Position numbers and translations under genes: made by a program
Notes under the pieces: model-generated
Told to the model about the DNA's origin: nothing
The model's input: only the letters and a program-made list of their open reading frames with translations
Databases searched by the model: none
Assembly (NCBI RefSeq): GCF_030684315.1
Contig: NC_081374.1
Location: forward strand, 17,719,265-17,783,264
Reading direction: 5' to 3'
Length of the DNA: 64,000 nucleotides
Origin: Stegostoma tigrinum
Taxonomy: Eukaryota
Shown: one piece after another, positions 1,675-56,305 of the stretch
Layout of the letters: each line of letters begins with the position of its first letter
How positions within the stretch are numbered: position 1 is the stretch's first letter

Positions 1675-1960
1675 TTTCTAGGTCATTTCAGAGGCCAGTT
1701 ACCCATTGCTGTTGGTCTGGAGTCACATGTAGGTCAGAATAAGTAAGGACAGCAGATTTCCTTTCCTAAATAACATCAGTAAACCAGATGGAGTTTTCTG
1801 ACAATTGTTAGTGCTTACGTTTAGAGCAGTTTTGTTTTAAATCCGGATTTTTAATTGAATTTGAATTTTATCATGTGCCATTATGGGATAGAAAGCCATG
1901 TCCCCAGATTAACCTAGACCTTAGTATTAGAAATCCAGTGGCATTGCCAGGATGCCACTG
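1675..1960 (-). mobile_element. tRNA-derived SINE, same family as 41662-42019, degenerate
   Basis: Reverse complement matches 41662-42019 (cattgctgttggtctggagtcacatgtaggtcag vs ctggcctatatgtgactccagacccacagcaatg). Confidence 0.6.
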
Positions 1961-2688
1961 ACTTCCCCATGAATTTCCTTGCATCCTTCACAGACATCAA
2001 CTATACATCTTGTGTGGGCACAAACACTACTTCTGGGAACAAAAACTCTCCCAATTTTGGGAGAGAATATATATTGAAGGGGAAAAGTTTTAGTGAAATG
2101 TGTTTTGTGTTGATTAGTAAGCTTGATTGGTTTGTAGCCCAGTGGAGCAACTGTGTACGTAAACAATAATGTAAAGACTTGCAGCAAAGCATGAAAGGAA
2201 CATTTCCAGGGTCAATTAAATATGGGTTAGAAGACCACACACACTGTGCTCTGGCTATAACCTCCTCCCATCCATGGTGCTTGTGTTTATGCAAAGTCAT
2301 TGCATTGTGTGTATTCCTCCTCTCAGTCATATTTCTTTTTGTGAAGATACTTGAACTTTTTTATTTCCTCTGTGCCTCAGTAAATGGGAAATTGCAACAA
2401 GCAAATAACAATGCACCAGCTGTGGGTTTTTAAAAAAGCAGGTTGGGTATTGGTGGGACAGCCACATCCTTCAAGTCACCTTCCATTAATACGCCAGATT
2501 TCAAATGGACTAACTCCAGGAAAACGTGCACTTCTGCTCTGAGGTCTCTATGATGTCAGGCTGTGGTCCTGTTCAAATGGAATGAAAACCAGAAAAACAG
2601 GCTTTGCTGGAACGTAGCAGCCAGTGTAATTTTTAAGAAGACTTAGGCTGTGGATGAGAGTTTGCTCGCTGAGCTGGAAGGTTCGTTT

Positions 2689-2728
2689 TCAGATGTTTCG
2701 TCACCATTCTAGGTAACATCATCAGTGA
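2689..2728 (-). ncRNA. Second hammerhead motif copy (inverted arm), GAAACGTC changed to GAAACATC
   Basis: Reverse complement of 2814-2853 with a single CpG-type transition in stem III. Confidence 0.6.
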
Positions 2729-2813
2729 GCCTCCGACGAAGCGCTGGTGTTATGTCCCGCTTTCTATTTTATGAATAGAAAGCGGGACAAAACACCAGCG
2801 CTTCGTCGGAGGC

Positions 2814-2853
2814 TCACTGATGATGTTACCTAGAATGGTGACGAAACGTCTGA
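2814..2853 (+). ncRNA. Minimal hammerhead ribozyme motif (PLE type)
   Basis: tca-CTGATGA-t-GTTACC(tagaat)GGTGAC-GAAA-CGTC-tga: intact core, 6-bp stem II, 3-bp stem I, loop-less palindromic stem III. Confidence 0.8.
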
Positions 2854-3367
2854 AAACGAACCTTCCAGCTCAGCGAGCAAACTCTCATCCAGAACTTCAA
2901 CCTGAGCTACAAATCTTCTCAAACTCACTTAGGCTGTGCAAGGAATAAAGAATAACATAGAGCTAATAACCACACAGACATGTGATTGTATGGACACTTT
3001 TACTTGGCGGGGTGACACAGGCAAATCTTTCTCGTTTTCCAACTACCAAGTCATTGAATCTTTCCATCAGGCAGAAAAAAAAATCTCCTTTTAAAATGGA
3101 GAAGCACACTTTTTCTGCACCCTGATTGCCTAATAATAGAGGTGGGAAGGGGAAAGAAGTGGCCCATGCTGTGGCTGTCCAGATTTAAGACTGAGTTGAG
3201 GAGAAACTTCCCAGTTTGGGAACAATCCCAAAGCATTTTCACTTTAAAGTCAGATTAACACATGACTGAGATAATGGGAACTGCAGATGCTGGAGAATTC
3301 CAAGATAATAAAATGTGAGGCTGGATGAACACAGCAGGCCAAGCAGCATCTCAGGAGCACAAAAGCT

Positions 3368-3395
3368 GACGTTTCGGGCCTAGACCCTTCATCAG
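3368..3395 (-). ncRNA. Minimal hammerhead ribozyme core in the pLTR (intact)
   Basis: Minus strand reads CTGATGA-a-GGGT(ctag)GCCC-GAAA-CGTC. Only ~2 bp of stem I are evident. Confidence 0.65.
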
Positions 3396-3514
3396 AGAGG
3401 GGGATGGGGAGAGGGAACTGGAATAAATAGGGAGAGAGGGGGAGGCGGACCGAAGATGGAGAGTAAAGAAGGTAGGTGGAGAGAGTATAGGTGGGGAGGT
3501 AGGGAGGGGATAGG

Positions 3515-4498
3515 TCAGTCCAGGGAAGACGGACAGGTCAAGGAGGTGGGATGAGCTAAGTAGGTAGATGGGGGTGCGGCTTGGGGTGGGAGGAAGGGAT
3601 GGGTGAGAGGCAGAGACAGGTTGGACTGGTTTTGGGATGCAGTGGGTGGGGGTGGGGGGTGGGGGGAAGAGCTGGGCTGGTTGTGTGGTGCAGTTGGGGG
3701 AGGGGACGAACTGGGCTGGTTTACGGATGCAGTAGGGGAAGGGGAGATTTTGAAACTGGTGAAGTCCACATTGATACCATATGGCTGCAGGGTTCCCAGG
3801 CGGAATATGAGTTGCTGTTCCTGCAACCTTCGGGTGGCATCATTGTGGCAGTGCAGGAGGCCCATGACGGACATGTCATCTAGAGAATGGGAGGGGGAGT
3901 GGAAATGGTTTGCGACTGGGAGGTGCAGTTGTTTGTTGCGAACTGAGCGGAGGTGTTCTGCAAAGCGGTCCCCAAGCCTCCGCTTGGTTTCCCCAATGTA
4001 GAGGAAGCCGCACCGGGTACAGTGGATGCAGTATACCACATTGGCAGAAGTGCAGGTGAACCTCTGCTTAATGTGGAATGTCATCTTGGGGCCTGGGATA
4101 GGGGTGAGGGAGGAGGTGTGGGGGCAAGTGTAGCATTTCCTGCGGTTGCAGGGGAAGGTGCCGGGTGTGGTGGGGTTGGAGGGCAGTGTGGAGCGAACAA
4201 GGGAGTCACGGAGAGAGTGGTCTCTCCGGAAAGCAGACAGGGGAGGGGATGGAAACATGTCTTGGGTGGTGGGGTCGGATTGTAAATGGCAGAAGTGTCG
4301 GAGGATGATGCGTTGTATCCGGAGGTTGGTAGGGTGGTGTGTGAGAACGAGGGGGATCCTCTTAGGGCGGTTGTGGCGGGGGCGGGGTGTGAGGGATATG
4401 TTGCGGGAGCAGAGGTCCTTTGCAGGTCTGGGAGAGGGAGGCTGTGAGCTGGGGCAGGCTGGATTGCAGTGCCTGGAGGTGCCGGCGCATGGCTGCAA
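3515..4498 (-). CDS. PLE ORF C-terminal part: RT-thumb/linker, Cys/Zn motif and GIY-YIG endonuclease (5' truncated, no RT core)
   Basis: NVVYCIHCTRCGFLYIGETKRRLGDRFAEH...VANHF...RRLQEQQLIFRLGTLQPYGIN matches the PLE GIY-YIG pattern (VY..YIG, R, H, E, GxN). The N-terminal ~30 aa come from the junction spacer. Confidence 0.8.
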   Translation of the reverse strand: MQPCAGTSRHCNPACPSSQPPSPRPAKDLCSRNISLTPRPRHNRPKRIPLVLTHHPTNLRIQRIILRHFCHLQSDPTTQDMFPSPPLSAFRRDHSLRDSLVRSTLPSNPTTPGTFPCNRRKCYTCPHTSSLTPIPGPKMTFHIKQRFTCTSANVVYCIHCTRCGFLYIGETKRRLGDRFAEHLRSVRNKQLHLPVANHFHSPSHSLDDMSVMGLLHCHNDATRRLQEQQLIFRLGTLQPYGINVDFTSFKISPSPTASVNQPSSSPPPTAPHNQPSSSPHPPPPPTASQNQSNLSLPLTHPFLPPQAAPPSTYLAHPTSLTCPSSLD

Positions 4499-4641
4499 GT
4501 GTCTGTTTCAGGACTTGCAGGGAGAAACGATTCTGAAGGGGCAAAGGTCCTTTGCAGGTCTGGGAGAGGGAGGCTCTGTGCTGGGGCAGGCCACCCACCC
4601 CGCCCCCGCCACAACCGCCCTAAGAGGATCCCCCTCGTTCT

Positions 4642-5405
4642 CACACCACCCTACCAACCTCCGGATACAACGCATCATCCTCCGACGCTTCCGCCATTTA
4701 CAATCCGACCCCACCACCCAAGACATTTTTCCATCCCCTCCCCTGTCTGCTTTCCGGAGAGACCACTCTCTCCGTGACTCCCTTGTTCGCTCCACACTGC
4801 CCTCCAACCCCACCACACCCGGCACCTTCCCCTGCAACCGCAGGAAATGCTACACTTGCCCCCACACCACCTCCCTCACCCCTATCCCAGGCCCCAAGAT
4901 GACATTCCACATTAAGCAGAGGTTCACCTGCACATCTGCCAATGTGGTATACTGCATCCACTGTACCCGGTGCGGCTTCCTCTACATTGGGGAAACCGAG
5001 CGGAGGCTTGGGGACGGCTTTGCAGAACACCTCCGCTCAGTTCGCAACAAACAACTGCACCTCCCAGTCGCAAACCATTTCCACTCCCCCTCCCATTCTC
5101 TAGATGACATGTCCATCATGGGCCTCCTGCACTGCCACAATGATGCCACCCGAAGGTTGCAGGAACAGCAACTCATGTTCCGCCTGGGAACCCTGCAGCC
5201 ATATGGTATCAATGTGGACTTCACCAGTTTCAAAATCTCCCCTTCCCCTACTGCATCCCTAAACCAGCCCAGTTCGTCCCCTCCCCCCACTGCACCACAC
5301 AACCAGCCCAGCTCTTCCTCTCTCTCTCTCTCTCTCTCTCCCCCCCCCCCCCCCCCTCCACCCACTGCATCCCAAAACCAGTCCAACCTGTCTCTGCCTC
5401 CCTAA
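4642..5405 (+). CDS. Inverted second copy of the PLE GIY-YIG endonuclease region (part of listed ORF 4146..5405)
   Basis: Same protein as 3515..4498 with ~9 substitutions. A 2-bp (ac) deletion near 4643 shifts the frame upstream, so the first ~165 aa of the 419-aa ORF are antisense or out-of-frame readthrough. Confidence 0.75.
5318..5356 (+). repeat. (CT)n plus poly-C tract
   Basis: Directly visible; absent from the left arm (3645-3668). Confidence 0.9.
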
Positions 5406-5629
5406 CCGGTTCTTCCTCTCACCCATCCCTTCCTCCCACCCCAAGCCGCACCCCCATCTACCTACTTAGCTCATCCCACCTCCTTGACCTGTCCGTCTTC
5501 CCTGGACTGACCTATCCCCTCCCTACCTCCCCACCTATACTCTCTCCACCTATCTTCTTTTCTCTCCATCTTCGGTCCGCCTCCCCCTCTCTCCCTATTT
5601 ATTCCAGTTCCCTCTCCCCATCCCCCTCT

Positions 5630-5657
5630 CTGATGAAGGGTCTAGGCCCAAAACGTC
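5630..5657 (+). ncRNA. Hammerhead core in the inverted pLTR, mutated GAAA>AAAA (5650)
   Basis: CTGATGA-a-GGGTCTAGGCCC-AAAA-CGTC; the conserved G12 is lost. Confidence 0.5.
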
Positions 5658-7089
5658 AGCTTTTGTGCTCCTGAGATGCTGCTTGGCCTGCTGTGTTCAT
5701 CCAGCCTCACATTTTATTATCTTAACACATGACTGGGTGTGTTAGCAGACAGTTGTTTAATCAAATGTCCAGATAACAACATTATGAAGATATGGCTTGA
5801 AATTGAGATATTAATATTGGGAGCAGACATATTGTTGCTTTCATTTGTCCTCAAATAGATTCATACTTCCTTTGAAATCAAGATAAATTGAAATTGTTGT
5901 TAATATGCCCTCATTCTAAACCTAGAGATTAGTTAGAACTTAATTTTCTTTTTTAAAAAAAACCATTTTACAGGATGTGGGTGTCACAGGCTAGACCAGC
6001 AGTTGTTGGCCATCCCATTCCAAAAAACCCTTCACAAGTGAAATTGGCTTCCTGATAACTGTTGACACATTTCCTGATGGTGAAGGTTATCAAAATATCA
6101 TTTTTTTAAAAAAAAAATTGATTATCAGAAGGTCCAGTCCATAGCTGGTCAGTTTATCAGTATCTCCTGAGTTGTGCTGGTGTTGAATTAGCTTCCATTT
6201 CTTTATTAGGCATAGTTTAATTTTAGGCTACTTTCAGTCCTGTCTCTGTGGGTATTAAGAGTTTGAAATCTACCGGTTATCTAGGCAGGATGATTAACCA
6301 TCATGTTCATGAAGCCACATGTGCACCAAACTGATTTTTAAGAGATTCTATGTACAGAATTAGATACTTTTTATAACCTTCTACAGTAAGTCTGAAAATC
6401 AGCACTGTTCTGCGATTTGTAACTACAAGTATTTTCCCACATTATTTTCCACATAAGTACTAATGGTTTAGAAAGCTCCTTTTAATTCTGAAGGATAATC
6501 CAATGATTAAACTGTCAAATTCAACCTCTAATGAAAAATTACTGTCACCTTAATTACCTTTTCTGACAAGAGACTGATGCTGGGTTATGAGCAGATCAGC
6601 AGAAAATTACACAAATGACCTCTGAGAAACTTGCAGTGTTAAGACCGGGCCCTGGGTGAAGTTCCCCCATTAACTATGGTTCCAGATGTCTACTCCATTC
6701 CTGTCTGAGGAAGGATGCACTTGCTCCTGTTTATTCACCCACCAGCTTTGCACACCAAGATGAATTTGCAAAGGATCACTTCTTCTTTTAGGGATACCTT
6801 CCTCCCAGGCCATATGAATTTGTGGTTTAAAATGAGCTAATTTAACTAGGTTTTATTACTGACTGTGAGAAGTAACAATATCACATGCACACATCAGAAC
6901 GAGTGCAAAAAATGTTAAAGGACATAAGGTTCATTGATTGTGAAGCTTATAGAATGGAAGGTTGATAAGTCATGAAGTCATTTTTCGGATTCTTGGCTTT
7001 GTTTGAAATTTTTTTGTCCAGCTTTTTTGGCTGGATTTCTGGCTCGTGGATTACTAGCATTCAGAACAAGATGATCCTTTGACCTGAGA

Positions 7090-7197
7090 AGGTAGGAACT
7101 GCAGATGCTGGAGAATCTGAGATAACCAGGTGTAGAGCTGGATGAACACAGCAGGCCAAGCAGCATCAGAGGAGCAGGAAGGCTGACGTTTCGGACT
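7090..7197 (-). mobile_element. Solo pLTR 3' end of a Neptune-type PLE
   Basis: ggaactgcagatgctggagaatctgagataac...gctggatgaacacagcaggccaagcagcatc...gctgacgtttcgg matches 3275-3377. Confidence 0.8.
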
Positions 7198-7350: not shown

Positions 7351-7526
7351 AGATAGTAAGGACTGCCCATGCTGGAGTCAGAGATAGCAGAGTGTGGAGC
7401 TGGACAAACACAGCAGGCCAGGCAACATCAGAAGAACAGGATGAAGAAGGGTCCCAATGTGAAACGTCAGCTTTCCTGTTCCTCTGCTGCCTGGCCTGTT
7501 GTGTTCATCCAGCTCCACACTGTTTA
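7351..7526. mobile_element. Older mini fold-back PLE pLTR insertion
   Basis: gtgtggagctggacaaacacagcaggccaggc is inverted against gcctggcctgttgtgttcatccagctccacac. Left-only tail agatagtaaggactgc... Degenerate TSD atgttcctcgtctag (7336-7350) / atgtccttcatctag (7527-7541), 12/15 identical. Confidence 0.7.
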
Positions 7527-7849
7527 ATGTCCTTCATCTAGGCTGTTACCATTTTCCCTCACCGTGTTCACAGCCTAAAGTAACTTCCAAGGTTCCCGTT
7601 TAGTTCATAGTACATTTTAAGTTCCTTTGAACTTCTTGGTACCTTTGTTGGGTATGTCTCACCTGACAGCCACTGAAATATTTTGGCTGTATCGGTTCTC
7701 TTTTTTTTTAAAAAGTAAAGCTGAAATTAAATTGTGATTTTTGTCCAAAGGTGATCTAGGGTTATGACTAGATTTGCCATGCTGAAATATAAATTCCTTT
7801 TATAATAGCTTTATTCCTTATTTAGTTTGCGGACAGCAATCAGTTAAGT

Positions 7850-7985
7850 TTGGTTTCAGTGACCCTTCCTTAGGAACTGCTCTGAGGAAGGATCTTGACC
7901 CTGTAACATTACCTCTGATTGCACTCTGCAGATGCTGCCAGACCTGCTGAGCCTTTCCAGCAATTTCCAGTATTTGCAGTTCAGT
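7850..7985 (+). mobile_element. Degenerate PLE pLTR fragment with a short central inversion
   Basis: gacccttccttag / ctgaggaaggatc inversion, then cagatgctgccagacctgctgagc..ttccagca shared with 8525-8622 and 58440-58670. Confidence 0.55.
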
Positions 7986-8524
7986 TCATTTGTAAACGGA
8001 ATAATGAATCCTTTTTAATATATGTACTTACAAAAATGGTTAATTTTCATGTTTTTCACACACTTGGAAATATTTAGACTATCAGGAGGTAATCCTTAGT
8101 TTGTTCTTCTATTAAGTGGTTATTTGGATTCCATTTGTGTATGTTTGAAAGTAATTGCCTGAACTTATTAGGGGTTTGCAAATTATTTTAAAAAATTGTT
8201 GACCACTCTTACATTCAATTCCAGACCACCTCTGGTGAACACTTGGACAGGCCAGCAAACTGTGCAGAAACACTTGCATATTTTGAAGAGAGGTGGTCCC
8301 TTTTATTACTTTAAAACTGTAACCTTTTGAGTTCATACATGAACTCAAACTACTTTGTGCCATGTATCAAGGGTCAACAGTAGTCTGTTACACTCCATGC
8401 GTGCTCACATTCTCCCACTCTGAAGTAAGCTCTGTTGGTATAACAAGAGCTTCTCATGATGCTAAGGCTCCTGAAGAAGAATAATATGATTAGTACTGGA
8501 GAGATTTTCCCAAGCATTAACATC

Positions 8525-8622
8525 GTTCTGAGAAAGGGTCACCGGACCTGAAACGTTAACTGTTTTTTCCATCACAGATGCTGCCAGACCTGCTGAGCTT
8601 TTCCAGCACATTTGTTTTTTGT
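8525..8622 (+). mobile_element. PLE pLTR fragment with a decayed hammerhead motif
   Basis: ttctgagaaagggtcaccggacctgaaacgttaac...cagatgctgccagacctgctgagcttttccagc. Confidence 0.6.
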
Positions 8623-14945: not shown

Positions 14946-15127
14946 TCTCAAGAGAGATGAAATATTGTCCATGAACACAGGATGTCTTCACCTAAAGTTG
15001 GCATAGTATTCCTGAAAATTGTGACTTTCTCACACTATTGTTGGTGAGGGCTTGCTGTGTGAAAACAGAGCTTTTTTGTTATAATTGTCACTGCACGACT
15101 TGAAAAAACTGGTTTAAATATGACCAT

Positions 15128-15251
15128 TTCTGAAGAAGGGTCCCAACCCGAAACGTTAACTTTCCTGCTCCTCTGATGCTGCCCGACCTGCTGTGCTCCT
15201 CCAGCTCCACGCTGTTATCTCTGACTCTGGCATCAGCAGCTCTAACTATCT
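15128..15251 (+). mobile_element. Solo PLE pLTR end with an intact hammerhead core at 15130-15157
   Basis: CTGAAGA-a-GGGT(ccca)ACCC-GAAA-CGTT, followed by pLTR sequence and tail (ctctgactctggcatcagcagctctaactatct). Confidence 0.75.
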
Positions 15252-15794
15252 TTAAATACAGTGCATTGTGTATGCAGCATTGTGTATTATTGACAGAAAT
15301 AACTTGCAAAATAAAAGGCTAACTTCAGTGAAGAAAACAGGCTTCTTGCTTACAAAGAGGTATTTTCAAAAAACATGATAGTACATTACAGGTACAGTGT
15401 AAGCTCTTCAACTACTGTACCTGTGCAGGTGACGTACTGTCGTGTGCAGTGCAGCAGAAAGTTTTTAATTATGCTCACAAACATTCCTCTATTTTTAGTA
15501 TATGTACAAACAGCAGAGCATTTCTTTTAAATTTAAGACCAGATATACTTGAGTGCTTCACCAAAAAGCTGTTTAGAGAAAAAAAAACAATGATCTTTGC
15601 TGGCAGGACACAGATGCAGTGGCACCAACACTGTCAGCACATTTAGGGGCCTTGCTAATGATGCATCTCAAAGGTCCAAGTGGCTTAAAGGTGTGAAATG
15701 CAAAAGGACATTAAAATTGGGAATGGGAGGAGGTGACATAAAAAGGCAATATTTTAAAGAGTACAAAGACTTGAAAAAACGAGATGTAAAACTA

Positions 15795-16386
15795 GAGACA
15801 ACACGGTGTGGAGCTGGATGAATAAATAGAGGGAGGAAGGGTGGAGTTGGGGAAAGGTAGGTGGGGTGATGTTAGGTGGATGCAGGCAGGGAGTGGTGGG
15901 GATTAGTCAGTGGGTGTAGCAGATACTTGAGGAAGAAGATGGACAGGTCGTGTTGATGCAAGGAGTCAGGGATGAGAGGGAGGTTGGATGTGGGATGAGG
16001 CCAGAGTGCGGAGATTTTCACCAGTTTTCCATCTTCTTCCCCACCCGTCCAGCCAACCAATTCCACTACCAACCCCTACCCTTATCCACCTATCACCACC
16101 CCACCTACCTTTCCCCATCCCCACCCATGCTCCCTACTGCCTCCTTGACCCGACACAACCTCCTCGTCTTCTCTCCCACGTATCTGCCCTACCCATCCCA
16201 CTGACTAGTCCCTACCTGCATCTGTCTGCTTTTCCCCAGCCCACCCCTCCTCCCTCTATTTATTTCTGAGCTCTCTTCCCTCTTCCCCCACCGAGGGAAG
16301 AAGGGTCCTGACCTGAAATGTCAACTTTCGTCTTCCTCTGATTCTGCCTGGCCTACCTGCGTTTCTCCAGCTCCTCACTGTGTTGC
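15795..16386. mobile_element. Degenerate fold-back Neptune-type pLTR insertion
   Basis: G-rich left half (aataaatagagggaggaaggg...tgcaggcagggag) mirrors the C-rich right half (ccctacctgcatc...ctcctccctctatttattt); ends caacacggtgtggagctgga / tccagctcctcactgtgttg. Confidence 0.65.
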
Positions 16387-18469
16387 CCGCGTTCTTAATT
16401 AGATGTAAAGCACTTTGGAATGTCCCAGGAAAGTGCCTATTTAAATGCAAATCCTGTTTAATTTGGAGGTTGGTACATTCAACCTCATATCGTACTGAAT
16501 ATGAGAGCTGTTGCAGTATGGGACGAAGCATCTTGTGCCCTGTGTCTAGACTGACCGTCTGAAAGAGCAGCTCAATGAGTGCCACTCCTTGTTTTTTTTC
16601 TGTCAGCCTTCTTTTTACGCTTTTTTAGATAACAACCCAAATTCCCTTTTTAAAGCTACAATGGATCTGGCCTCCTCCACACTTCATCAGGGCAGTTTAT
16701 TTCGGATCTTTAAAGAAAAGTTTATCCTTGTGCCACCATTGTTTATTTTTATTTTAAATTGCCGTTTCCCTTAACTCAACATCCTCTGGTTCATTCTCCT
16801 TCTAACAATGGGATCACTTTATCCCTACCTAATCTGTCCCAACCGTCCATGATTTTCAAATTTTGTCTTACCCTCATTGTAAAGAAATACATATATCAGG
16901 TAGCCCTGGCTGTTCTGATGCCACGGACTTGGCTCCGGCTGCACTCCCCAGAAGATTCATCACTTTGATCAGTATTTGGAACTGAATACTGCCTGGAGAC
17001 TCTCTCTTGTATGACCTGCCTATTTATTTTTTGACTGCGTGGTGGTTACCCACACCTTCTCCCTTTGTGTACTCTTGAACTTTGGAATGACCATCTCAAA
17101 AACCATGCTGACCTTGCACTGCAGTGATCCCAGCTGTTTGCTTGTGGTCTGAAATTTGGAGCTTGAGCAGTAGTAGCTGTTCATATTTCCTGCATGTTCA
17201 TTTAACACAGACGCAGGAAATCTGAGTTCCCACAGGGAACAGGATGTGTCCACCAGGGGCTGGAGCTGCGATGCCATTGCTCTCTGATAGATAACAAAAC
17301 TTACATTTCAAAGCAATATGGAATTTGCTTTTAAATCAAAGGGGCAGCCCTTGCTTTGCAAGAGTTAGTGCCTGTCTATGATGTGTGTGAATGTTGACTG
17401 CATTATTATTGATCTATCTGCAGCCTAAAAGTTAATGTCTATAGAGCCTGTATTTGCAGACCCTGAGAAACCATGACCTAGTGCTATTCACTGATAGTTT
17501 TTGAAAGCAAATGGATTGCTAGACATGCCTTTTCATTGGAATAATTTTCATACATCAAAATCGAACTGTGAAGTTGTACAGCATTTTTAATCAACATTAG
17601 ACCATGCTGCAAAATCAGTACTGAATACTACTGTAAGAGGACATCCGGTCTTGGTTAACAGAAGATTAACAGGCTTTATGAAACATAACTGTGTGAGGAA
17701 TGATGAGAGGGCAGCTTCTTAAACCTTACTGATTTGAGCTCTAGTTCCGTGTGTTCAGGTGTCTCATTAGTACAGCTCCATAAGCAGGTGCCCAGATACT
17801 ATTCCTAGAGAAAAGGTACAGTCAATCCTTTACTCCACTGATACTGATTAACACAAATGTCAATTAAATGGAGTTAGGATATGTTACTTGCACTGCTTAT
17901 ACATCACTTAATTGAATCAAACATTAAGGGTGCTTTTACTTCACTTCTGTTATTAAACAAAATTGAATTTCCTTTCTGTGCTGATTAGACAGTGATATAT
18001 TCAAGGGAGGATGTCGAGTCATCCTAAAAAACAGGTAGAAGTTGCAATTTGGTCACAAAATTCTACTTGCGAATAGGAATTGGTGGTAATGGCAATGGTT
18101 TGATCCGATCAAAGATGAACTCTGTTCTCAAAGATAGGATGGACATTCTAATAGAACTGTGCAGATATTTTAAGATTTAACGAGGTGTCATGCCCTTTTA
18201 TTTCAATCTTACAATGTCCCTGGGCCATTTAAGTCATAACTTTTCAAACTGGAATTTACTGTATTTATTTGTGTATATTAATTTTTTAAAAATGTTCTAA
18301 TCTTCTGTTAGTAACTGACATTTATTTTATAGAAGCTTCCACAACAAAAGTCGGAATAGTTTGAAAATCAGGACCTTTTGGCAATTTGAGGATTTGATCT
18401 TTAGATTCTAGTACTCTTTTTAAAGGCATTAATCATCAGCTTTGTGAATAATAAATAACCATGAGAGAG

Positions 18470-21419: not shown

Positions 21420-22150
21420 AAATCAAAGGAAGAGGCCATGCAGCCCATTGCTTCTGCTCTGGCTGAATAAACTAGCCCTTCCCTCCATCTGATATCCCGT
21501 TCCAATCTTCAGGTGTTGACTCATGTTCGTTCTTGCTCAACCACCAAACCAGGCAGCAAACTCTAGATGACCCACTGTCCTCAGGGTGAAAAATAGTAGG
21601 AACTGCCGATTGCTGGAGTTTGAGATAACCAGATTTAGAGCTTGATGAACACAGCAGGCCAGGTAGCATCGGAGGAGCAGACAGGCTGACGTTTTGGATC
21701 TGGACCCTTCCTCACGGGGAGGAAAAAAATGAAGGGTCCAGACCCAGTACGTCAGCTTTCCTGCTGCTCTGCTGTCTGGCCTGCTATCTTTATCTTCTGT
21801 TCCTTTTCGTCCTTCTACCCTAACTCCGTGACACCTGAAAATTGACTACTTCTTTAGGGGGAACATGGGCAACATAGAATCACATATGTTTTCCCTGTCT
21901 GCTCTACCCAAATCACCAAATATTTTGTACACCTCAATCAAGTCACCACTCCTCCACTGCACCCCCCCCCCCGCCACCCTCCGTCACTTCTGTTCTAAGG
22001 AAAACAGCTCCAATCTGTCCAATCTTTCCTCATAGCTGCAAATTTCTATTCCTGCCAATTTTCTTGTAAATCTCCTTTGTACTGTCTCTAGCGCAATTAC
22101 ACCCTTCCTGGAACGTGGTAACGAGAACTGTTGAAAGGAACTCCAGCTCG
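21420..22150 (-). mobile_element. CR1-like LINE 3' fragment interrupted by a PLE mini-hairpin
   Basis: Minus-strand remnant of the CR1 LEYCVQFWSP..RKD..ALERVQRRFT region at 22030-22150; CR1 3' UTR at 21430. Confidence 0.55.
21592..21795. mobile_element. Mini fold-back PLE pLTR insertion
   Basis: gctgacgttttggatctggacccttc is inverted against gaagggtccagacccagtacgtcagc; left-only tail atagtaggaactgccgattgctggag. Confidence 0.7.
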
Positions 22151-28494: not shown

Positions 28495-29110
28495 GTCATA
28501 GTCATACAGCACGCATACAGACCCTTCAGTTCAGGTCAACTGTGTTGACCAAGTTTCCCAAACTAAACCAGTCCCACTTGCCTGTGTTTAGTCCGTATAT
28601 ATCTACCTGCATCCACCACTTCCTTTGGTAGGTCATTCCATACACAAACCATCCTCTGCATGAAAAAGTTGCCCCTCAGGTCCCTTTTAGATCTGTGTTC
28701 TCTCACCTTTAAACATATATCCCATTGTTTTCAATATTCCCTCACCCTGGGGAAAAGACCTTTGCTAGTCACCTTATCTATGCTCCTCATGATATTTTAA
28801 ACGTGTAGAAGGTTCCCCACTCAACATCCTATGCTCCAGTGGAAAAAAAACTCCCAGTCTATCCAGCCTCACCCAATAACTCATACCCTCCAATTCTGGC
28901 AACATCTTAGTAAATTTTTTCTGAACCCTTTCCAATTTAATAATATCCTTCCTATAGCAGGATGACTGGAACTGTACACAGTACTCCAGAAGTGGCTTTA
29001 CCAATGTCCTGTTCAACCTCAACATGACATCCCAACTCTCTTCCTCAATGGTCTGAGCCATGAAGGCAAGTGTGCGAAATGCCTCCTTAACTACTCTGTC
29101 TATCTGTGAT
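28495..29110 (-). mobile_element. CR1/HER1 LINE 3' fragment
   Basis: ORF 28774..29061 DVMLRLNRTLVKPLLEYCVQF..CYRKDIIKLERVQKKFTKMLPELEG; (gtcata)n tail. Confidence 0.85.
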
Positions 29111-31314
29111 CTTTCAATATCAAAGTCAGCAACTCGTCATCTCCAATTGGGCACAAGAAACATGATTTTTTTGTTTACACCTTGGGTGACTTTAGTCATT
29201 GCTGAAGTGTACACAAATAGTCTTGGCCATTTTGTTTCTGCTTCCTATAGGAAAGCATTCCATTTATAAGCTGTTCTTCTAAGTCTTCAATTTGATGAGA
29301 AGGAAGTGTGGCTGATAGCAGTGTATTGCCTGCAGAATTGGTAAATGCTTAAAAATATCAGCAATTAGTGCCCACACCTAAAGTAGGCATTAGCCTCTTT
29401 TTTTGCCCCTTGTACTAGTATCAGGTCCAGCACTTGTTTGAGACCTGCACTATAGTTTTGCCTTGCCTGGGGTTTGGGGGTTGGGGGTGGTGGGGAATCA
29501 AGTCTGAATATAACTAGTTCTTGAAATGACTACCTTCTGGGCCATGACCACAAGATACCTTTTCTTAAAAATAAAAGTAGTTATGTACCTGAATGTGGAA
29601 ACAATCTGGCACTAAAGTCCAGCTCCTGTTCTGAGTTGCTCAAGGCTGTTATTAGCTTGGATATTGATGCTGTCTCCCCACCCCAGCTGCCTCACTTCAC
29701 TTGAACTGCTGCGTAGTCAATAGCAACACTGCCTTCATCAACTCTTCACTTCCAGAGAGCATTATTTGTCTTTGCGTTGCTCCTCAAGGAGATGGCTGGT
29801 TTCTTAGGCCTTTCTTGCGCCGAGATGATATTGATCCCACCTTGCCAAAAGCATGAGCTTTTCTTGATCCTAGCTTCCAATTAGCAGAGGAAGGATCTCC
29901 CCACCAGGTGCAATGTTGGATGTAAACCTTGCTAAAGGCTCTTGCATGTATTTAAATTATTCAAAAGGTTTTATTTCTCCTTGCTCTTCAGAATTTGGGT
30001 ACTGGGTGTAATTCCAGTCTTCCCATTCTGTTTGCCTTACCCAATCAAACCATTGTTTGTTACCACACTACAAAACATTACATCATACTGTGTAAAAGTC
30101 AAGGTTTGTGATTTTGAGTATGTTTTCACATTGGACCTTATTTTTAAGGATCAACATCCAAAAATTTCAGAGCAAAGTATAATGCTGGAGTTGTTAGTGA
30201 TTTGATTGATTTGTCGATGCGTAGAAGTGAAAATATGTGTGATACATAAATGAATAAATGTTAATTAATTGGGATTCATATATGTAACTTATTACTGTAA
30301 AATAAATGCTATAATGAATTATTTAGAGTTGTTTCTACTTTGTGAGGATTATTTCATTTTACTTGGGTCCGAATCAAGTTTGCACATCAACCCCTCAAAA
30401 ACTATACCTGGGTAAGAGTTGAGTTTATTGATCTAAAAAGTTGGTTTCAAAAATTCAACTTTTGCATAAATTTCCGAGTTTAGATTTAAGAAAGAGGCCT
30501 ATTGACACTCCATGTTCTCATCTTCAACTTGTAGACAACAGGGTTCCCATTCCTAGCTGGAGTTTCTTTTTTAACTACTGTGTTTTGTTCAAATACACTA
30601 AGATTGGACTTTCCAAGTACTTTCAACAAAATTCAACGTATCAGTTTGGGTGTAAGGTTATTGATTCACATGATTAAAGATTAGACTGATGCATCCAAAT
30701 CCCACTAACAATACTATAGACATTGAAAGCCTGCAAAGTGCAATTTAGGTATTTTATAGCACAGCGCTTTATGTTTGACATCAAAAAGTAGAGAAACTGC
30801 TTTTGACAGATGTGGATAGGGATGGTTGTACTTGGTTTACATACCGTTGTTTAACTGCAACTTCTGTGGATTTGTTTTGCAATGGAATTGTATCCGATGA
30901 GGGGGAGGTTAAAGAGAATTTCTGCCTTACTTTTCCTTATTGTGAAGTCGAATGTGGTGCCAATACAAATCCACACTGAAAGCAGTCATAATTCAGCTGC
31001 TTGATCATTTGAGGGGAAAAAAGTGTTGCAGTTATTAAAATTTTTTAATTTTTTGAGTCTGGTATGACAACTTTAATCACAATAGTAACCCTAAAATTCA
31101 AAATATTTTTTAACATGCGTTTACAATTTGATAAACATAGCATCTAAATTACAAGACTCTTTGAAACCCATGTCAGTCAGTCATTATTATTAAAATGGCG
31201 AGGTCTCTATGGATTGTTTCACTTCTATAGGTGTGGTTTAATTTGAAGTACATTTAATGCTCAAAACATTTCTGCATTTTCTCATTATTGCCCTCATCTC
31301 AAAAATAAACCAAT

Positions 31315-31710: not shown

Positions 31711-32019
31711 GAACCTTATGGAAAAACTCAGTTATTGAGGATAGCTACTAGCAGCCTGGTTCGATATCCGAGAAACCACCCTTGGGTGTGTACGCAGTAT
31801 CATTTTGAATTCCTGATTTGCCATGAAATTTGATAAGCAGAAGTTATTTTGCTTAATAATGCTACAGTTTGATTAATTTGTAATTATAGACGTTTATAGC
31901 AGTTACCCTCCTTCATTTAAAGAATGTTATAAAAGAAAGTTGAGGTTGATTTTTGAATCAGCTTGATTGGCAACACACCTTGGATTTTCTGAGCATACAG
32001 CTGCCTGATTGAGTTCCTG

Positions 32020-32185
32020 TGATGTGGAGGTGCCAGTGTTGGACAGGGGTGGACAAGGTCAAAAGTCACATGACACCAGGTTATCGTCCAACAGGTTTAT
32101 TTGAAAGCATGAGCTTTCGCAGCTCTTCTCCTTCCTCAGATATATAGTGTGGAAGAGGTTGTATGCTGACACAGAATTTATAAGC
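32020..32185 (-). mobile_element. Solo pLTR end of the third PLE family, hammerhead-like motif at 32111-32139
   Basis: gatgtggaggtgccagtgttggac...caccaggttatcgtccaacaggtttatttgaaa matches 43718-43805. Minus strand reads CTGAGGA...GAAAGCTC. Confidence 0.75.
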
Positions 32186-33329
32186 AGCAATTAAGCAGGA
32201 TTGAGTGCTTTCCCCACTATACTGTTAATGTAACTAGGGTTATGGTGTAAATTGGCGATGTACAAAGAGCATCCTGAAGGATCATGTAGCATGGCTTGGT
32301 GAGGGGCAAAGAGGAAAACGAATGTAAAAACACAGCCTATGTCTAACATAAATTAAAATTTACTGTGCATGAGCTGGTTGCATTACCAAATTGTCCTAAA
32401 ATCCCTGCTGATGCAGCACTCTGGAGGTTGCACTTTGGCACTAAGGATGTCACTGGCTGTGGGAAAAGTGCTCCTGGTTGTTGGTTTTTTGTTTTATAGG
32501 AGTTATTGTCCAGGTGCATCTCCCAAAAGCTGAACTAGCACACTAATTCTTTCACTGTCATGTTTTAATGGTTTGTGTGCTCACAGTCTTGTCCAGAAAA
32601 CTTAATCCCATCCACAGTTTACAGACTCTAAACTATTTCTAACATTAACTTAAAGGAGCTGAAAATTAGTCCAGGAAAAACTCTCAGTTGCCAGGACATT
32701 GTCTAATATATCACATTTCTGCTGCTGTAACTTGACTTTTCTTTCCATGCAGGAACATCTGGTTAAACTACACATACCATAGGAATGTGGTTTGACAGTT
32801 GTAACAACTTTCTCCTGGTACTGGAAATGTGTACTTCCTTTAACCCTCGTGAAAGGGTGCTGGTGGGCGATAGTGTATTGATAAAACTTAGAATGTTGAA
32901 AGTAAAATTTAATTTCTCTTTAATATTTTTCACAGCTGTTTCTCTGATCCGATTATTCAAATTTGCATGTGAGCCATTTCTTCTTTTCTTAGTCATGCTT
33001 CTGGGGGCAGATGTATAAAGAGCATTTGTTGATTTTGATGAGAGAAACTGAACACAAACATGGGAGTGATGATGGTATTCTGAAGTCAGGAAATGAAACT
33101 TTCCAAACTTACTCAGTACTGAACCTGTTCTGCACCATCCTGTTCGGCAAAGACTGGTGTGAATTTTTTTTAAAATCCCCAGCGCTCCTTGGTCCTCCAC
33201 TGACCGCCATTTGTAAAGTTGAACTCGACCAGAAATCTCCAAATCTCATTCACTTGTTACCCTTGTGTTTTCATGTTCGGCAGCATCTCAGTTTTTAGCT
33301 TCTCGTACTTGGAGCCCTCTGTGTTTAAA

Positions 33330-36619: not shown

Positions 36620-37289
36620 GAAAGAATGGAAATAGGCCATTCAGTCCATCAAGTTTTCTCTGCTGTTCAATTGTGCCTGATCTATTTCCCAACCCCATTT
36701 TTCTGCTTTCACCCCATAGTCTTTGATCCTTTTACCAACCAAGAATCCACCTATCTCTGTCTCATATATATTCTCAATGACTTGGCCTCCACAGCGTTCT
36801 ATGACGAGGAATTCCAAAGATTTCCCCACTCTCTGGCTGAAGAAGGTCATCCTCTTCTCAGTGCGGAAGGGCTGTGCCTTCAATCTGAAGGTGAGCCCTC
36901 TGGTCCTAGTCCCCCCTACAAGTTGCAATGCTATCTCCACATCCACTTTATCCAGGTCTCTCAGTTTTCTTGTAAGTTTTCATCAGATCTCCCTCATCTC
37001 TCTCTCAATTCTCATCAAATACAGACTGAGTTCTCAATTACCCCAATGATGACCTTAATTCCCAGGATCGTTTTTGTGAACTACTTCTGGATCCCCTTCA
37101 TGGCCAGCACATCCTTGATTTAGATATGGGACCCAAAACTTTTCTCAACATTCCAAATGTGGTCTGACCAGAACCATCCTCAGCATGACATCCTTACTCT
37201 TGTGGTCTAACCACCTTGAAACGAATATTAACATTGCATTTGTCTCCTTAACTGCCAACTGAGTCTTCATCTTAATCAGAAGAGAACCC
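36620..37289 (-). mobile_element. CR1-like LINE 3' fragment (host of the 37290 PLE)
   Basis: ORF 36641..36946 VGGTRTRGLTFRLKAQPFRTEKRMTFFSQRV is the CR1 ORF2 C-terminus. Confidence 0.75.
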
Positions 37290-37722
37290 TGGATGTGAGT
37301 TTGCACGCTGAGCTGGAAGGTTAGTTTTCAGACAGTTCGTCACCATTCTAGAAAACATCATCAGTGAGCCTCTGATGAAGCACTGGTGTTATGTCCCGCT
37401 TTCTATTTATCGGTTTAGGTTTCCTTGGGTTGGTGATGTCATTTCCTGTTCTTTTTCTCAGGGGATGGTAGATTGATTTGGAGCCAATGTGTTTGTTGAT
37501 GGAGTTCTGGTTGGAATGCCATGCCTCTAGGAATTCTCGTGCGTGTCTCTGTTTGGCTTGTCCTAGGATGGATGTGTTGTCCCAATCAAAGTGGTGTCCT
37601 TCCTCATCTGTATGTAAGGATACGAGTGATAGTGGGTCATGTCGTTTTGTGGCTATTTGATGTTCGTGTATCCTGGTGGCTAGCTTTCTGCCAGTTTGCC
37701 CAATGTAGTGTTTGTCACAGTT
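37290..37722 (-). mobile_element. 5'-truncated Poseidon/Penelope-type PLE: GIY-YIG C-terminal half plus pLTR with a decayed hammerhead
   Basis: Minus translation CDKHYIGQTGRKLATRIHEHQIATKRHDPLSLVSLHTDEEGHHFDWDNTSILGQAKQRHAREFLEAWHSNQNSINKH. 37290-37408 matches 2651-2768. Confidence 0.85.
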
Positions 37723-38389
37723 TTAACATGAATAGTTGTGGCCCCATCACTGACTCCAGAGGATCTCCACAAAAGTCACTGCCATCCTGCAGTACCATGC
37801 TACTAGCTAGCTTTTCTCTCAATGTTTTATTCCCATCTTGAAACATCCAGACATGGTAATATCTTTTCTGTGGATCAAACAGACAAAGCTAAAATCCTAC
37901 TTTATTTGTGAAGATTGCTAGGAAGACTTCTCACTGATTAACAGCCTACTATAGTAGGACTTGTTATCGAGAGTGAATAGCAGTGCCTAATTTACACAGC
38001 TCTCCTGGCACAGTGCATAATTATAGTATTTCCTCCAAGGCATTATTCCTTTCAGGAAGGGTCACTATTCTGCTGAGATGCTTGTCTGCATGCAAAACGT
38101 GAAGCTCAGAACAGTTTATTTCTGCTTCACAAAGCTAAGCCTCAGCAGTTGCAGACATTGTTTACGTACACTCTCTCCATTCAAGGGGAATTTAAAAAGC
38201 TATTAAGGTCCATTCTGTACATGTGCAGCAATTTCTTGCTGTGCGAGGTTAAAATGTTCCTACAGTCAGCTTTAAGCATAACTGTCACGATAACGTTCTG
38301 TGGTCCACTAATGGTTCTAGTCTCACTTGCGGAAAATTAGTAAATTGACAGCGTACCCATTTGTAGGCCTAGGCCTTGACAAGGTTATT

Positions 38390-43717: not shown

Positions 43718-45788
43718 GATGTAGAGGTGCTGGTGTCGGACTGGGGTGGACAAAGTCAGAGGTTATGCAACACCAGGTTATAGTCCAACAGGTTTATTTG
43801 AAATCACAAGCTTTCATAGCCCCTTTATCAGTTGAAGTGAGAGAAGAGCACACAGGCATAGAATTGATAGACCAAGAGATAAAATGATCATGCACATTGT
43901 GTGAGCAGAGTGTTGAATAATAAGTCTCTGCAGGCGATCAAAACTGTCAGATGGTGGGAGTAAAGAGCCAACAGTTGAATAACAAGCAAAGGAATCACCT
44001 GTAATCCAATAAAATGAGGCAGAGAGATAATTATAAAATGTTAAAAATAAGGATGTGTTGAAGACAAACCAAATGACTGGAATGACATGATAAGTATCAA
44101 AGTCACATGCTGAAGGTGTAATATAAGTAATTTGAAACTGTACACACTAAGGTAGAGAGGTCATAACAATTTATCAAGATGGTAGTGTCAACAGGACAAT
44201 AAGGAAGACTTTTCAGATACAGAACAGTATGCTGGGGTCACGTAGCACAATGTGAATACAAAATTACAGTTGAGGCCATCCTCATGGGTACAGAACTTGG
44301 TTATCAGTCTCTGCTTGGCGATTGTGTGTTGTTGTGTATGTGAAAGGCCACCTTGGAGGACAGTTACCTTGATATCAGAGGCTCAACGTCCTTGACTGCT
44401 GAAATGTTCCCTGACTGAGCAGGAACATTTCTGTCTGACAATTGTTGCACTGTGTCCATTCATCTGTTGTTGTAGCGTCTGCATGGTCTTGTTAGTATAC
44501 CATGCTTCAGGGCATTCTTGCCTGCAATATATGAGAGACAACATTGACCGAGTCACATGAGTATCTGCCGTGCACATGGTGGATGGTGTTCTCACGTGTG
44601 ATGGCAGTGTCTGTCGATGTACTGATTATGTCTTGCAGATTTTGCCATGTCAGCATTGTGTGGTATTCTGAGCAATGGTGTCTTGGTAGTTTGCTGCAAA
44701 AGATGGTCTGTTTAAGGTTGGAGTCTGTTTTGAAGGTGAGAAGTGGAGGGTGTAGGCATGATCTTGATGAGATGCTTATTGTCATCCATGACATGTTGAA
44801 AGCAGTGAAGAACATGACATGGTCTTGCTTCTCCAGGGCAGTAGTAGACAATGAAGGGTACTCTCAGTTGTAACCTGTATCTGTAATCTGAAGAGGACAT
44901 TGTGGGTTTTCACTGTGGCACATTGGAACTGGTTATTGATGAGTTGAGCATCGTATCCTGTTATGAGGGTGTCCACCATATTCCTCCTCATCTGAGCAGA
45001 CCCTGTGTATGCACAGGACTTGTCGGCAGGGGATGGCTTCTTTAATATGTTTAGCATGGAAGTTAGAAGTGCAGCATTGCGAGGTTATCCGTGGACTTGC
45101 AGTAGAGTGAGGCACTGAAGAGTCTGTTCTTGTTGGTCGAGAGTGATTTCTGAAGGACAGTCCATGGTAAATCTGATGCTGAGATGAAGCTTGTTGATAT
45201 CACTATGTAGTGGTTTCGGTGATTCCTTGTCATGAGTCCAATGGAAGAAAACGTTGTTGATGTATCAGGTGTGTAGTGTTGGACAGAGGTCCTGTGCAGC
45301 AAAAGTCTTTGCTCGAACTTCTGCATAAAATGTTGGTGTATTAAGGTGCAAATTTGGTGCCCCTGACTGTTCCATGTGTTTGGATGAAGAACTGGTTGTT
45401 GAAGGTGAAGACATTGTGGTCGAGGATGCAGTGGATGCGACTCTGATACCTATTGCATTATTTCCAGTAATTTCTTTTCTCTCTAACACCAGCTTATTTT
45501 GAATTTTTTGTAATTATCTCGCTGTCTCATTTAATCCGATTGCAGGTCATCCCTTTGCTTGTTATTCAGCTGTTGACTTTTTATTTAAATACCTAATATT
45601 TTTGATCACTTGCAGAGGCTTACTATTTGACATAGCACTCACACCATTTGTATGATCTTTTGATATCTCTGCCGGTAAATGCTGTGTCTGTGTGCTTCTG
45701 TCTGACCTCACCTGATGAAGGGGCTATGCTCTGAAAGCTTGTGAGTTCCAATAAACATGTAGGGCTATAACTTGGTGTTGTGTGACTC
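43718..45788 (-). mobile_element. Decayed PLE with RT and GIY-YIG remnants and an inverted pLTR
   Basis: 43761-44060 is inverted against 45484-45787. Minus remnants: TLHT*YINNVFFHWT (YIDD motif, 45253-45264), SLYCKSTDNLAMLHF, HHVHGRYSCDSVNVV, CRQECPEAWY...QQMNGH...VREHFS. Confidence 0.8.
45707..45745 (+). ncRNA. Minimal hammerhead ribozyme motif
   Basis: CTCAC-CTGATGA-a-GGGGC(tat)GCTCT-GAAA-GCTT-GTGAG: 5-bp stem I, stem II, palindromic AAGCTT stem III. Confidence 0.7.
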
Positions 45789-46551
45789 TCAAAATTGATG
45801 CCAGTTTCATATTTAATATCTGGGTTGTGCAAAAGGAGGAAACTTAAGACCAGTATCTTCATGACTATCACACTTTCATTACAAACCAATTGCTCTTGAT
45901 TGTTACAGTGGCTCCACATAAAAGCAATAAGATACAAGGCAGAAAAACAGTGGTGCCTTCATCTGCTTCTCCATTTGATGATCATTTGAGTAGTTAAACT
46001 AAAATGAGAGTGAATTTATTGGTACATTTGAGTGCATGCTTGGATCAGACCTGTGTTCATTCAGTCTCTGCGCATTAGTGAACGTAATGATTTCCACAAG
46101 ATGGTCCCGCAATATCCAGGTTTGAGTGGACCCCTGACCTGCAGAGCTATTTAAAGGACCTTTTTCCTTTTATCTGATGGACTATTTATGGTGAGTGTGG
46201 AATTTCTAGAATGGTGACAGTGACAACTGTACCAAATGACATCATCTGAATGAAAGTCTTACAATGATCCACATGCTGCTATAGTATTGGCCAGTAACAT
46301 GAGCTGCTTGGAGGCAAGGGGCCAGGATGCAGCTTATTCTATGCTAAATGTTTCAAGCTATACAAGATATGTTTGTGGTAAAAGCTCCTGTGTCCTCTGA
46401 TTTGTCATGTTAACAGGAACACTGCTAACACATGAAATCAATAGTTAGCAGTATCGTCTTCGAATATGGGTGGAAGGCATGACCAATGCATTGGAGCCAC
46501 TTAATCAGAGGAGTGGAAAATGCTTGTAATGAGTTGACACCCCCATTAAAT

Positions 46552-46730
46552 TGTCATTTTCTTCAGATTCAACAGGGATTGTTTGATATTCATTGTATTG
46601 TACAATTTACTGTCATTTTCTTCAGATTCAACAGGGATTGTTTGATATTCATTGTATTGTACAATTTACTGTCATTTTCTTCAGATTCAACAGGGATTGT
46701 TTGATATTCATTGTATTGTACAATTTACTG
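46552..46730. repeat. Perfect tandem repeat, 3 x 59 bp
   Basis: Unit tgtcattttcttcagattcaacagggattgtttgatattcattgtattgtacaatttac at 46552, 46611 and 46670. Confidence 0.97.
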
Positions 46731-46844
46731 CCAAAGTGGGGTTATGAGAGCACCACTTTATTTTCAGAAGATAAAACTTAGATCTATTTGCTTTAGTCCA
46801 GCATTTCTGTGCACCCACCCAAAGATATTAGGCTTGATATTTCA

Positions 46845-46975
46845 GACAGCAAAAACTGCAGATGCTCGTGTCAAGACCCTTCTTCAGGACAAGAGTCCCA
46901 ACCCAAAATATCAGCTTTCCTGTTTCTCTGCTGCCTGGCCTGCTACGTTCCTCCAGCTCTACACTGTGTTACCTC
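46845..46975. mobile_element. Internally deleted PLE pLTR mini-hairpin
   Basis: aaaactgcagatgct tail and gacccttcttcag, then the opposite-orientation cagctttcctg..gctgcctggcctgct..ctccagctctacactg. Confidence 0.55.
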
Positions 46976-47242
46976 ATATTTGCTTTGAATCTGTACAGGA
47001 ACTATATAGAAGCTCATAGCAATGGGAAAGTGAAGCACCGCTTCTTTGTTGGGTGTGCACTTGGGAATATCTCATTAGGTTTTGGAACATGTTTGTGATG
47101 AAATGCACAAGTCCAATTAATGCAATTCCTTGAAGGGAATTACAACACGCAAGGCTCTATATTATGGCGAAACTGCTGGAAGAAATGAGGAATCTCAGGT
47201 CTTCCCCGGGACCGAGGCAGTTCTCATTTTCTTGGCGCAGTT

Positions 47243-55010: not shown

Positions 55011-56305
55011 GAACATAGAACAGTACAGCACAGAACAGGCCCTTCAGCCCACAATGTTGTGCTGACCATTGATCCTCATGTATGCACCCTCAAATTTCTG
55101 TGACCATATACATGTCCAGCAGTCTCTTAAATGACCCCAATGACCTTGCTTCCACAACTGCTGCTGGCAACGCATTCCATGCTCTCAACTCTCTGCGTAA
55201 AGAACCTGCCTCTGACATGCCCTCTATACTTTCCACCAACCAGCTTAAAACTATGACTCCTCGTGCTAGCCATTTCTGCCCTGGGAAATAGTCTCTGGCT
55301 TTCAACTCTATCTATGCCTCTCATTATCTTGTATACCTCAATTAGGTCCCCTCTCCTCCTCCTTTTCTCCAATGAAAAGAGACCGAGCTCAGTCAACCTC
55401 TCTTCATAAGATAAGCCCTCCAGTCCAGGCAGCATCCTGGTAAACCTCCTCTGAACCCTCTCCAAAGCATCCACATCTTTCCTATAATAGGGCGCCCAGA
55501 ACTGGACGCAGTATTCCAAGTGCGGTCTAACCAAAGTTTTATAGAGCTGCAACAAGATCTCACTACTCTTAAACTCAATGCCCCTGTTAATGAGAGCCAA
55601 GACACCATATGCTTTCTTAACAACCCTGTCCACTTGGGTAGCCATTTTAAGGGATCTATGTATCTGCACACCAAGATCCCTCTGTTCCTCCACACTGCCA
55701 AGAATCCTATCCTTAATCCTGTACTCAGCTTTCAAATTCGACCTTCCAAAATGCATCACCTCGCATTTATCCAGGTTGAACTCCATCTGCCACCTCTCAG
55801 CCCATCTCTGCATCCTGTCAATGTCCCGCTGCAGCCTACAACAGCCCTCTACACTGTCAACGACACCTCCGACTTTTGTCGTCTGCAAACTTGCTGACCC
55901 ATCCTTCAATCCCCTCATCCAAGTCATTAATAAAAATTACAAACAGTAGAGGCCCAAGGACAGACCCCTGTGGAACCCCACTCACCACTGACTTCCAGGC
56001 AGAATATTTTCCTTCTACTACCACTCGCTGTCTTCTGTTGGCCAGCCAATTCTGTATCCAAGCAGCTAAGTTCCCCTGTATCCTATTCCTCCTGACCTTC
56101 TGAATGAGCCTACCATGGGGAACCTTATCAAATGCCTTACTGAAGTCCATATACACCACATCCACAACTCGACCCTCATCAACATTTCTAGTCACATCCT
56201 CAAAAAACTCTAAGGTTTGTAAGGCATGACCTACCCCTCACAAAGCCATGTTGACTGTATTTGATCAAGCCATGCTCTTCCAGATGGTCATAAATCTTAT
56301 CCCTC
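55011..56305 (-). mobile_element. Young 5'-truncated CR1/HER1 LINE: RT domain to 3' end, frameshifted
   Basis: [47 protein letters not shown] (55857..56195) continues after a frameshift as [37 protein letters not shown] (55127..55927); gaacatagaaca tail. Confidence 0.93.

Follow-up and report, generated by a model that had tools for sequence, protein, structure and literature searches.

Within a 64,000-nt stretch of the genome of the shark Stegostoma tigrinum (contig NC_081374.1; the whole stretch is hereafter called the window), a short fold-back unit flanked by two identical 12-mers is found at positions 2641-2938. It is composed as follows.

2641..2652, + strand: left TSD, ACTTAGGCTGTG; its last 2 bases, TG, are microhomology with the element
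2653..2768, - strand: tail-less arm, an inverted, 5'-truncated PLE 3' end; its outer end is the family's tail-less end
2769..2773, no strand: junction or loop TTATG, the meeting point of the two 5'-truncated ends
2774..2891, + strand: tailed arm, a sense PLE 3' end (tblastn and translation)
2892..2926, + strand: PLE tail, 35 nt
2927..2938, + strand: right TSD, ACTTAGGCTGTG (contigs 2897-3254, 0 differences, runs X2 and X4)

When the arms were compared in the window sequence, 2651-2768 and 2774-2891 proved complementary at 116 of 118 positions (mismatches at 2694/2848 and 2752/2790), so that arms and 5-nt loop were re-measured exactly as in the original prediction, and the 35-nt tail announced for the right arm only was recovered at 2892-2926. 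The predicted flanking repeat also holds: the window contains exactly two instances of ACTTAGGCTGTG (2641-2652 and 2927-2938), a candidate 12-bp TSD (in a chance control, an exact 12-mer repeat with the same geometry was obtained at 10 of 20,000 random window positions). The left arm had been said to start at 2651; pairing does start there, but the bases TG (2651-2652) double as the last two of the TSD, and the insert is thus 2653-2926 (274 bp). Element and TSD overlap by 2-3 bases at either junction, and the right junction can be placed only to within about 3 nt, as family contigs run about 3 bases past the tail. The 35-37 unpaired bases at the right end mean that the termini are not flush inverted repeats. 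The geometry is head-to-head, the element 3' ends of both arms facing the target ends.

On sequence evidence, each arm is the 3' end (pLTR) of an abundant family of Penelope/Poseidon type. Identity to 37289-37410 is 90-91%, in agreement with the predicted match to the 3' end of a GIY-YIG PLE at 37290. This reference copy lies outside the unit.

37289..37723, - strand: older single-arm, tail-less family copy with the GIY-YIG C-terminal half

Its outer end is within 1-3 nt of the family's tail-less end (the mirror of 2891). The ORF at 37348-37722 matches shark proteins, the best match being a Stegostoma record (83% over 99% of the query); 22 of 94 candidate proteins matched, several with an upstream RT domain, and PF00078 is carried by the relatives P0004 and P0013. 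P0001 and the copy at 37289-37728 agree at 82%. Pfam returned no match for the 124-aa fragment (37348-37722), and its only GIY-YIG match was on the ORF of the neighbouring element, below the cut-off (E=0.0011).

The right arm encodes the final 19 codons of this ORF and the stop TAG at 2831-2833, its residues being identical to the C-terminal residues of P0002, and the arm translations correspond to the C-terminus of P0001 and P0002 (shark PLE proteins). Each arm carries these final 19 codons and stop, plus an ORF start in another frame; in the right arm this start is ATG 2823, which lies inside the ribozyme and opens an ORF through the tail. The claim that the unit contains no coding domain is therefore correct for RT and EN and incorrect for these terminal codons and ORF starts. 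Poseidon and Neptune elements are distinguished by a Cys-rich Zn-finger linker between RT and EN (passages of PMC3846280 and PMC8557442). In the 90 aa before EN, there are 0 Cys in P0001, P0011, P0013, and P0014, and 1-2 in P0004, P0005, and P0007 (all counted on relatives, the unit itself having no linker region), and 5 in the same linker of the neighbouring element 3269-5721. Few or no linker Cys make the family Poseidon-type, and its neighbour Neptune-type, by the linker diagnostic alone. Five annotated shark host proteins (P0002, P0003, P0006, P0016, and P0019) also end in or contain the EN-terminal sequence of this PLE; these are exonised or mis-annotated pieces.

Two hammerhead cores sit on opposite strands of the unit.

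2814..2853, + strand: minimal type I hammerhead (motif scan and published min-HHR features)
2814-16/2851-53, + strand: its stem I, 3 bp
2817-23, + strand: its CUGAUGA, then one extra base before stem II
2825-29/2838-42, + strand: its stem II
2843-46, + strand: its GAAA, then palindromic ACGU; predicted cut after C2850
2689..2728, - strand: degenerate minimal type I hammerhead core, G16.2 changed to A at 2694

A minimal hammerhead had been proposed in each arm: the right core is indeed intact, but the left one has lost G16.2, the G-to-A change at 2694 being of CpG type and disrupting the stem III ACGU palindrome. At E<=1, Rfam returned no hammerhead over the unit; six matches to mir-515, mir-5681, MIR397, and mir-4875 did fall on it, below gathering score, and were discarded, as any long hairpin would match. 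The right core shares with the metazoan PLE min-HHRs described in parts of Cervera and de la Pena 2014 (PMC4209133) the extra base between 9 and 10.1, the G10.1-C11.1 pair, the palindromic 15.2-16.2, and a short stem I; the differences are that one of the two cores is mutated and that stem I is just 3 bp. Dual opposite-strand min-HHRs, about 100-700 bp apart, are reported in Schistosoma (same source, in part). A read-through transcript of the whole unit is predicted to fold into a single hairpin of -234 kcal/mol, in which the pairing probability of stem II would be 2e-22, versus 0.99-1.0 in a lone arm; at these predicted values, ribozyme activity from the locus is unlikely. Both cores would, according to this predicted fold, lie within duplex, and so would the inner start site. 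The unit showed no HHR repeated in direct tandem, and a simple motif scan detected no Pol III A/B boxes, a SINE hallmark, on either strand.

Public contigs from four of 24 runs were aligned to 2745-3254, a segment that begins 24 bases before the loop (the left arm has 118) and extends through the right arm and the tail into the right flank. Thousands of contigs aligned per run (10,171, 11,434, 15,606, and 17,807), and the family is thus very abundant and common to two further organisms. Four runs of organism A (two samples) contain 91-93% of the sampled words of 1850-3260, versus a fraction of only 0.06-0.07 in runs of organisms B, C, and D, among which B and D were aligned. Runs X2 and X4 come from one study, and either is possibly the source of the assembly. 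Among the six loose-end rows listed per run, those of organism A cluster at 2891 (99 and 101 contigs) and at about 2923-2929 (144 and 141 contigs at 2923), where they lead into unrelated flanks; these positions are the two outer ends of the unit. In 41 and 36 contigs, again among the rows listed for this organism, 2774 is preceded by the family's normal upstream sequence. In both samples, a contig matches the right junction without difference; its share of the tail is only 30 letters, whereas the bar is 31. High contig depth in all four runs marks the right-flank stretch 3170-3220 as part of another repeat.

The loop itself behaves differently from the arm. Summed depth, which is no copy number, amounts to 494 and 746 at 2745-2761 versus 940,214 and 1,507,834 at 2779-2795; the value left of the loop corresponds to about 0.05% of that in the adjacent arm bin and to about 62-65 unique-flank depths, part of it coming from antisense family pieces and other junctions. 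Six other fold-back junctions were detected (2767>2821, 2769>2832, 2769>2861, 2769>2887, 2763>2903, and, on opposite strands, 2836/2875). All differ from TTATG, each is represented by one contig per run among the joints listed, and in two of the six the letters between the sides resemble antisense continuation from 37409 onward. Eight rows skipping to about 2898-2901 (apparently divergent subfamily middles) and two flank rows are left out of this count, and joint sides are just 23-25 letters long, sides under 30 letters being weak. Junction 2769>2861 has a depth of 245.8 in run X4, about 20 times the unique flank, and some fold-back junctions may thus be multi-copy. Among the contigs listed, none crosses TTATG, and none corresponds to an empty site or an orthologue, the flanks being barely covered in organisms B and D. 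A metagenome scan for the junction pattern gave three contigs from one bacterial-looking locus with a short hairpin; they have no BLAST match to the window and were put down to chance.

The anatomy of the unit is that of a typical PLE insertion, namely an inverted 5'-truncated copy, a TSD, and, at one end only, a tail of 30-40 bp (passages of PMC8557442 and PMC3846280), and supports the earlier reading of an extreme double-ended PLE truncation. According to the same passages on EN+ PLE insertions (Arkhipova et al. 2013, PMC3846280; Craig et al. 2021, PMC8557442), these also have inverted, head-to-head ends, a pLTR that overlaps the ORF start, and a one-sided tail (31 and 30-40 nt, versus 35 nt in the unit), with a TSD of 8-10 bp versus 12 bp here. 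Unlike in a typical insertion, both copies are shorter than one pLTR, and the RT/EN and the direct pLTR pair are gone; those passages describe no stub this minimal. Similarly, we found no paper on PLE hairpin stubs in sharks in a literature search that was thin on subscription journals and Repbase. The resemblance extends to green anole Poseidon_Ac (PAc), which nicks and extends both strands and uses two internal RT starts, the interval between them being the tail (parts of Frangieh et al. 2024, PMC11167929). As reported there, the ORF starts at hammerhead stem II, as in the shark family; the cut site is 26 nt downstream of the ATG in PAc and 27 nt here; and the PAc RT start at +111 to +118 compares with a tailed end at +104 to +107. 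In both, there are two 3' ends, separated by the length of the tail. PAc favours 5'-ATT-3' cut sites, whereas the edges of the unit's TSD lack an exact ATT. PAc also belongs to another host, has another sequence, which is unaligned with the shark family, and is characterized biochemically, whereas the shark family is known from its sequence alone.

Non-LTR retrozymes offer a second comparison. They are direct tandems with at least two same-strand HHRs and release a monomer circle (passages of PMC7229834 and bioRxiv 10.64898/2026.07.22.740005). Like them, the unit is short, non-coding, HHR-bearing, and PLE-related; unlike them, it has inverted cores and no tandem. Opposite-strand cores, one of them mutated and both predicted to be buried, argue for an abortive insertion, and against a retrozyme or a MITE. 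The pattern is thus a known one and not new: the unit is a fossil stub of the published PLE insertion type. We put the probability that it is an ordinary PLE insertion stub at about 90%, and it is likely the remnant of a single insertion that was cut short, not a new ribozyme element.

Other fold-backs of the window provide a context for this stub. Five further ones with candidate TSDs, 183-2453 bp long, belong to other PLE families.

3269-5721: Neptune-type fold-back, 330 bp from the unit; 14-bp TSD at 3255-3268 and 5722-5735; tail of about 33-35, on the left
7351-7533: mini fold-back, Neptune-like; candidate TSD of 8 bp with 1 mismatch; tail of about 31-40
21595-21835: mini fold-back, Neptune-like, less clean; candidate TSD of 8-9 bp
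43722-45791: 2-kb fold-back, other PLE-like family; candidate TSD of 9 bp with 1 mismatch; tail of 36; arms of about 1709 and 387 nt
58436-58670: mini fold-back, Neptune-like; candidate TSD of 9 bp with 1 mismatch; tail of 33

The short TSDs with a mismatch are each weak on their own. The three smallest units (7351-7533, 21595-21835, and 58436-58670; 183-241 bp) have hammerhead-type cores and a one-sided tail, and are older and more diverged. In 3269-5721, the 1.1-kb arms are identical at 1071 of 1089 positions, with inner ends only 13 nt apart. Between the arms lie about 180-196 nt of non-PLE sequence, which include a 54-nt direct repeat (4406-4458 and 4538-4591); this spacer looks like a captured template. 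Arm lengths and junctions vary in all fold-backs, as would be the case if each insertion generated the structure afresh. The inner ends are offset by 0, 2, 13, 22, 35, and 1322 nt in the six fold-back pairs (15793-16400, whose arms cannot be delimited, being outside this count), and no significant coupling across the six emerged (60 of 720 permutations). The tail-less arm of units 7351 and 58436 extends beyond the tailed arm, by 22-35 nt in the upstream direction.

The window contains additional PLE and repeat sequences. The inverted unit at 15793-16400 is Neptune-like and old, and has a candidate TSD of 11 bp. Single-arm PLE end fragments are found at 15121-15250, 32017-32198, 8524-8621, 7087-7194, and 46887-46980, some of them tailed and TSD-flanked, and many single-arm fragments break off 100-135 nt before the 3' end, level with the hammerhead or slightly upstream of it. 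PLE end pieces at 58316-58404 (beside 58436-58670) and 7838-7967 (near 7880) are possible partial tandems or nested insertions. Minus-strand RT fragments at 55127-56237 and 28774-29136 (RVT_1, E=0.012, on 55127-55936) are presumably CR1/L2-like. Finally, a 59-bp unit is present in three nearly perfect tandem copies at 46552-46733.

How the two arms came to face each other is a separate question, and passages of PMC8557442 and PMC11167929 still call the origin of the PLE inverted copy and tail unresolved. We favour, with some reserve, two-nick priming, in which both nicked target strands would have primed reverse transcription within one abortive insertion. The GIY-YIG endonuclease would cut the two target strands 12 bp apart; the tailed arm would then arise from cDNA primed by one 3'-OH at the family's outer start site, and the tail-less arm from cDNA primed by the other at an inner start site, about 35 nt upstream, with 2-3 bases of microhomology assisting each priming. 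Both cDNAs would stop early, at about 116 and 153 nt, and their ends would be joined at the AT-rich TTATG, with gap filling creating the TSD. The template would probably be one RNA, or else sister transcripts from a single source copy. Devoid of RT/EN, and with its ribozyme cores predicted to be locked in the hairpin, the product would be inert.

A common template is suggested by the variants. Both arms have T at 2885, where 96-97% of family depth is A; they also agree in nine further deviations from the 37290 copy and in the template base at which they stop. A shared rare variant and stop base point to what is probably one template lineage (a single RNA, sister transcripts, fold-back, or conversion at a later time). 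They are not what independent priming on random family RNAs should give, but they would be expected from fold-back copying or later gene conversion. Two templates were considered for mismatch 2790, where the left arm agrees with the 37290 copy, P0001, and P0002, and the right arm with loose-end consensuses of organisms B and D, and were rejected, as one mutation suffices.

The shared variant at 2885 is also what self-priming would give. Under this alternative, which still supposes an abortive PLE insertion, cDNA started at the tailed site would fold back at its AT-rich 3' end and copy itself, and would be cut or halted about 35 nt short prior to joining the other end of the target. The zero inner-end offset, the near-palindromic junction, and the neighbour 3269-5721, with its 1.1-kb arms ending 13 nt apart, are consistent with it, and self-priming from palindromes at inverted junctions is argued for in a passage of PMC3846280; the clustering of offsets lends it no significant support (60 of 720 permutations). 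However, self-priming needs an extra reason for the halt at the family's standard tail-less end. This end is also that of the single-arm copy at 37289, so that the inner end can form without a tailed partner, and of the contig cluster at 2891, and the PAc biochemistry attributes it to a second RT start (PMC11167929, in part). Moreover, self-copying of a tailed cDNA cannot yield a tail-less arm that reaches further upstream, as in units 7351 and 58436. The single-arm tail-less end, the second RT start of PAc, and the upstream-reaching tail-less arms of two units thus lead us to prefer two-nick priming and to regard self-priming as rather unlikely here.

Two further explanations lie outside abortive insertion, and we hold both to be very improbable. 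The 274-bp hairpin could be the founder or a member of a small non-autonomous family, re-mobilised whole from its tail by the PLE RT with its junction intact. It does retain the cis region that holds the RT start sites in PAc, pLTRs can drive integration in trans (passages of PMC11167929 and PMC3846280, respectively), and a depth of about 62-65 unique-flank depths left of the loop leaves room for at most some tens of copies. However, part of this depth comes from antisense family pieces and other junctions, no contig among those listed crosses TTATG, and the metagenome scan yielded just three unrelated bacterial-looking contigs. The unit also lacks a direct tandem HHR, a Pol III A/B box, and flush inverted termini, and its sense ribozyme and inner start site are predicted to be sequestered in the -234 kcal/mol fold. 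The amplifying MITE-like or retrozyme-like unit of the original prediction is therefore not upheld: among the contig junctions listed, the letters vary and differ from TTATG, only about 0.05% of arm depth continues past the loop instead of near-identical copies with a fixed internal structure, and retrozyme and MITE features are missing. An assembly fold-back artefact, or the later rearrangement of a longer insertion, is just as improbable. Palindromes are difficult to assemble (PMC8557442, in part), and the contigs listed give no read-level support across the loop, but the arms differ at two positions, one of CpG type, an exact 12-bp TSD bounds the unit, and the tail is one-sided. Likewise, both outer ends are the family's two natural ends, the same anatomy recurs elsewhere in the window, and 91-93% of the sampled words of 1850-3260 are present in runs of two samples.

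As a single locus, the stub is of minor importance, and its value is that of a test object for how the PLE inverted copy and tail are formed. Should the hairpin instead belong to a non-autonomous family, it would be the equivalent of a retrozyme built as an inverted repeat, with a ribozyme silenced by its own perfect duplex. If many short, TSD-bounded, two-armed stubs exist in the shark genome, their inner-end offsets and arm-shared variants would separate two-nick priming from self-priming. Finally, PLE stub hairpins could, if transcribed, feed small-RNA silencing of the family.
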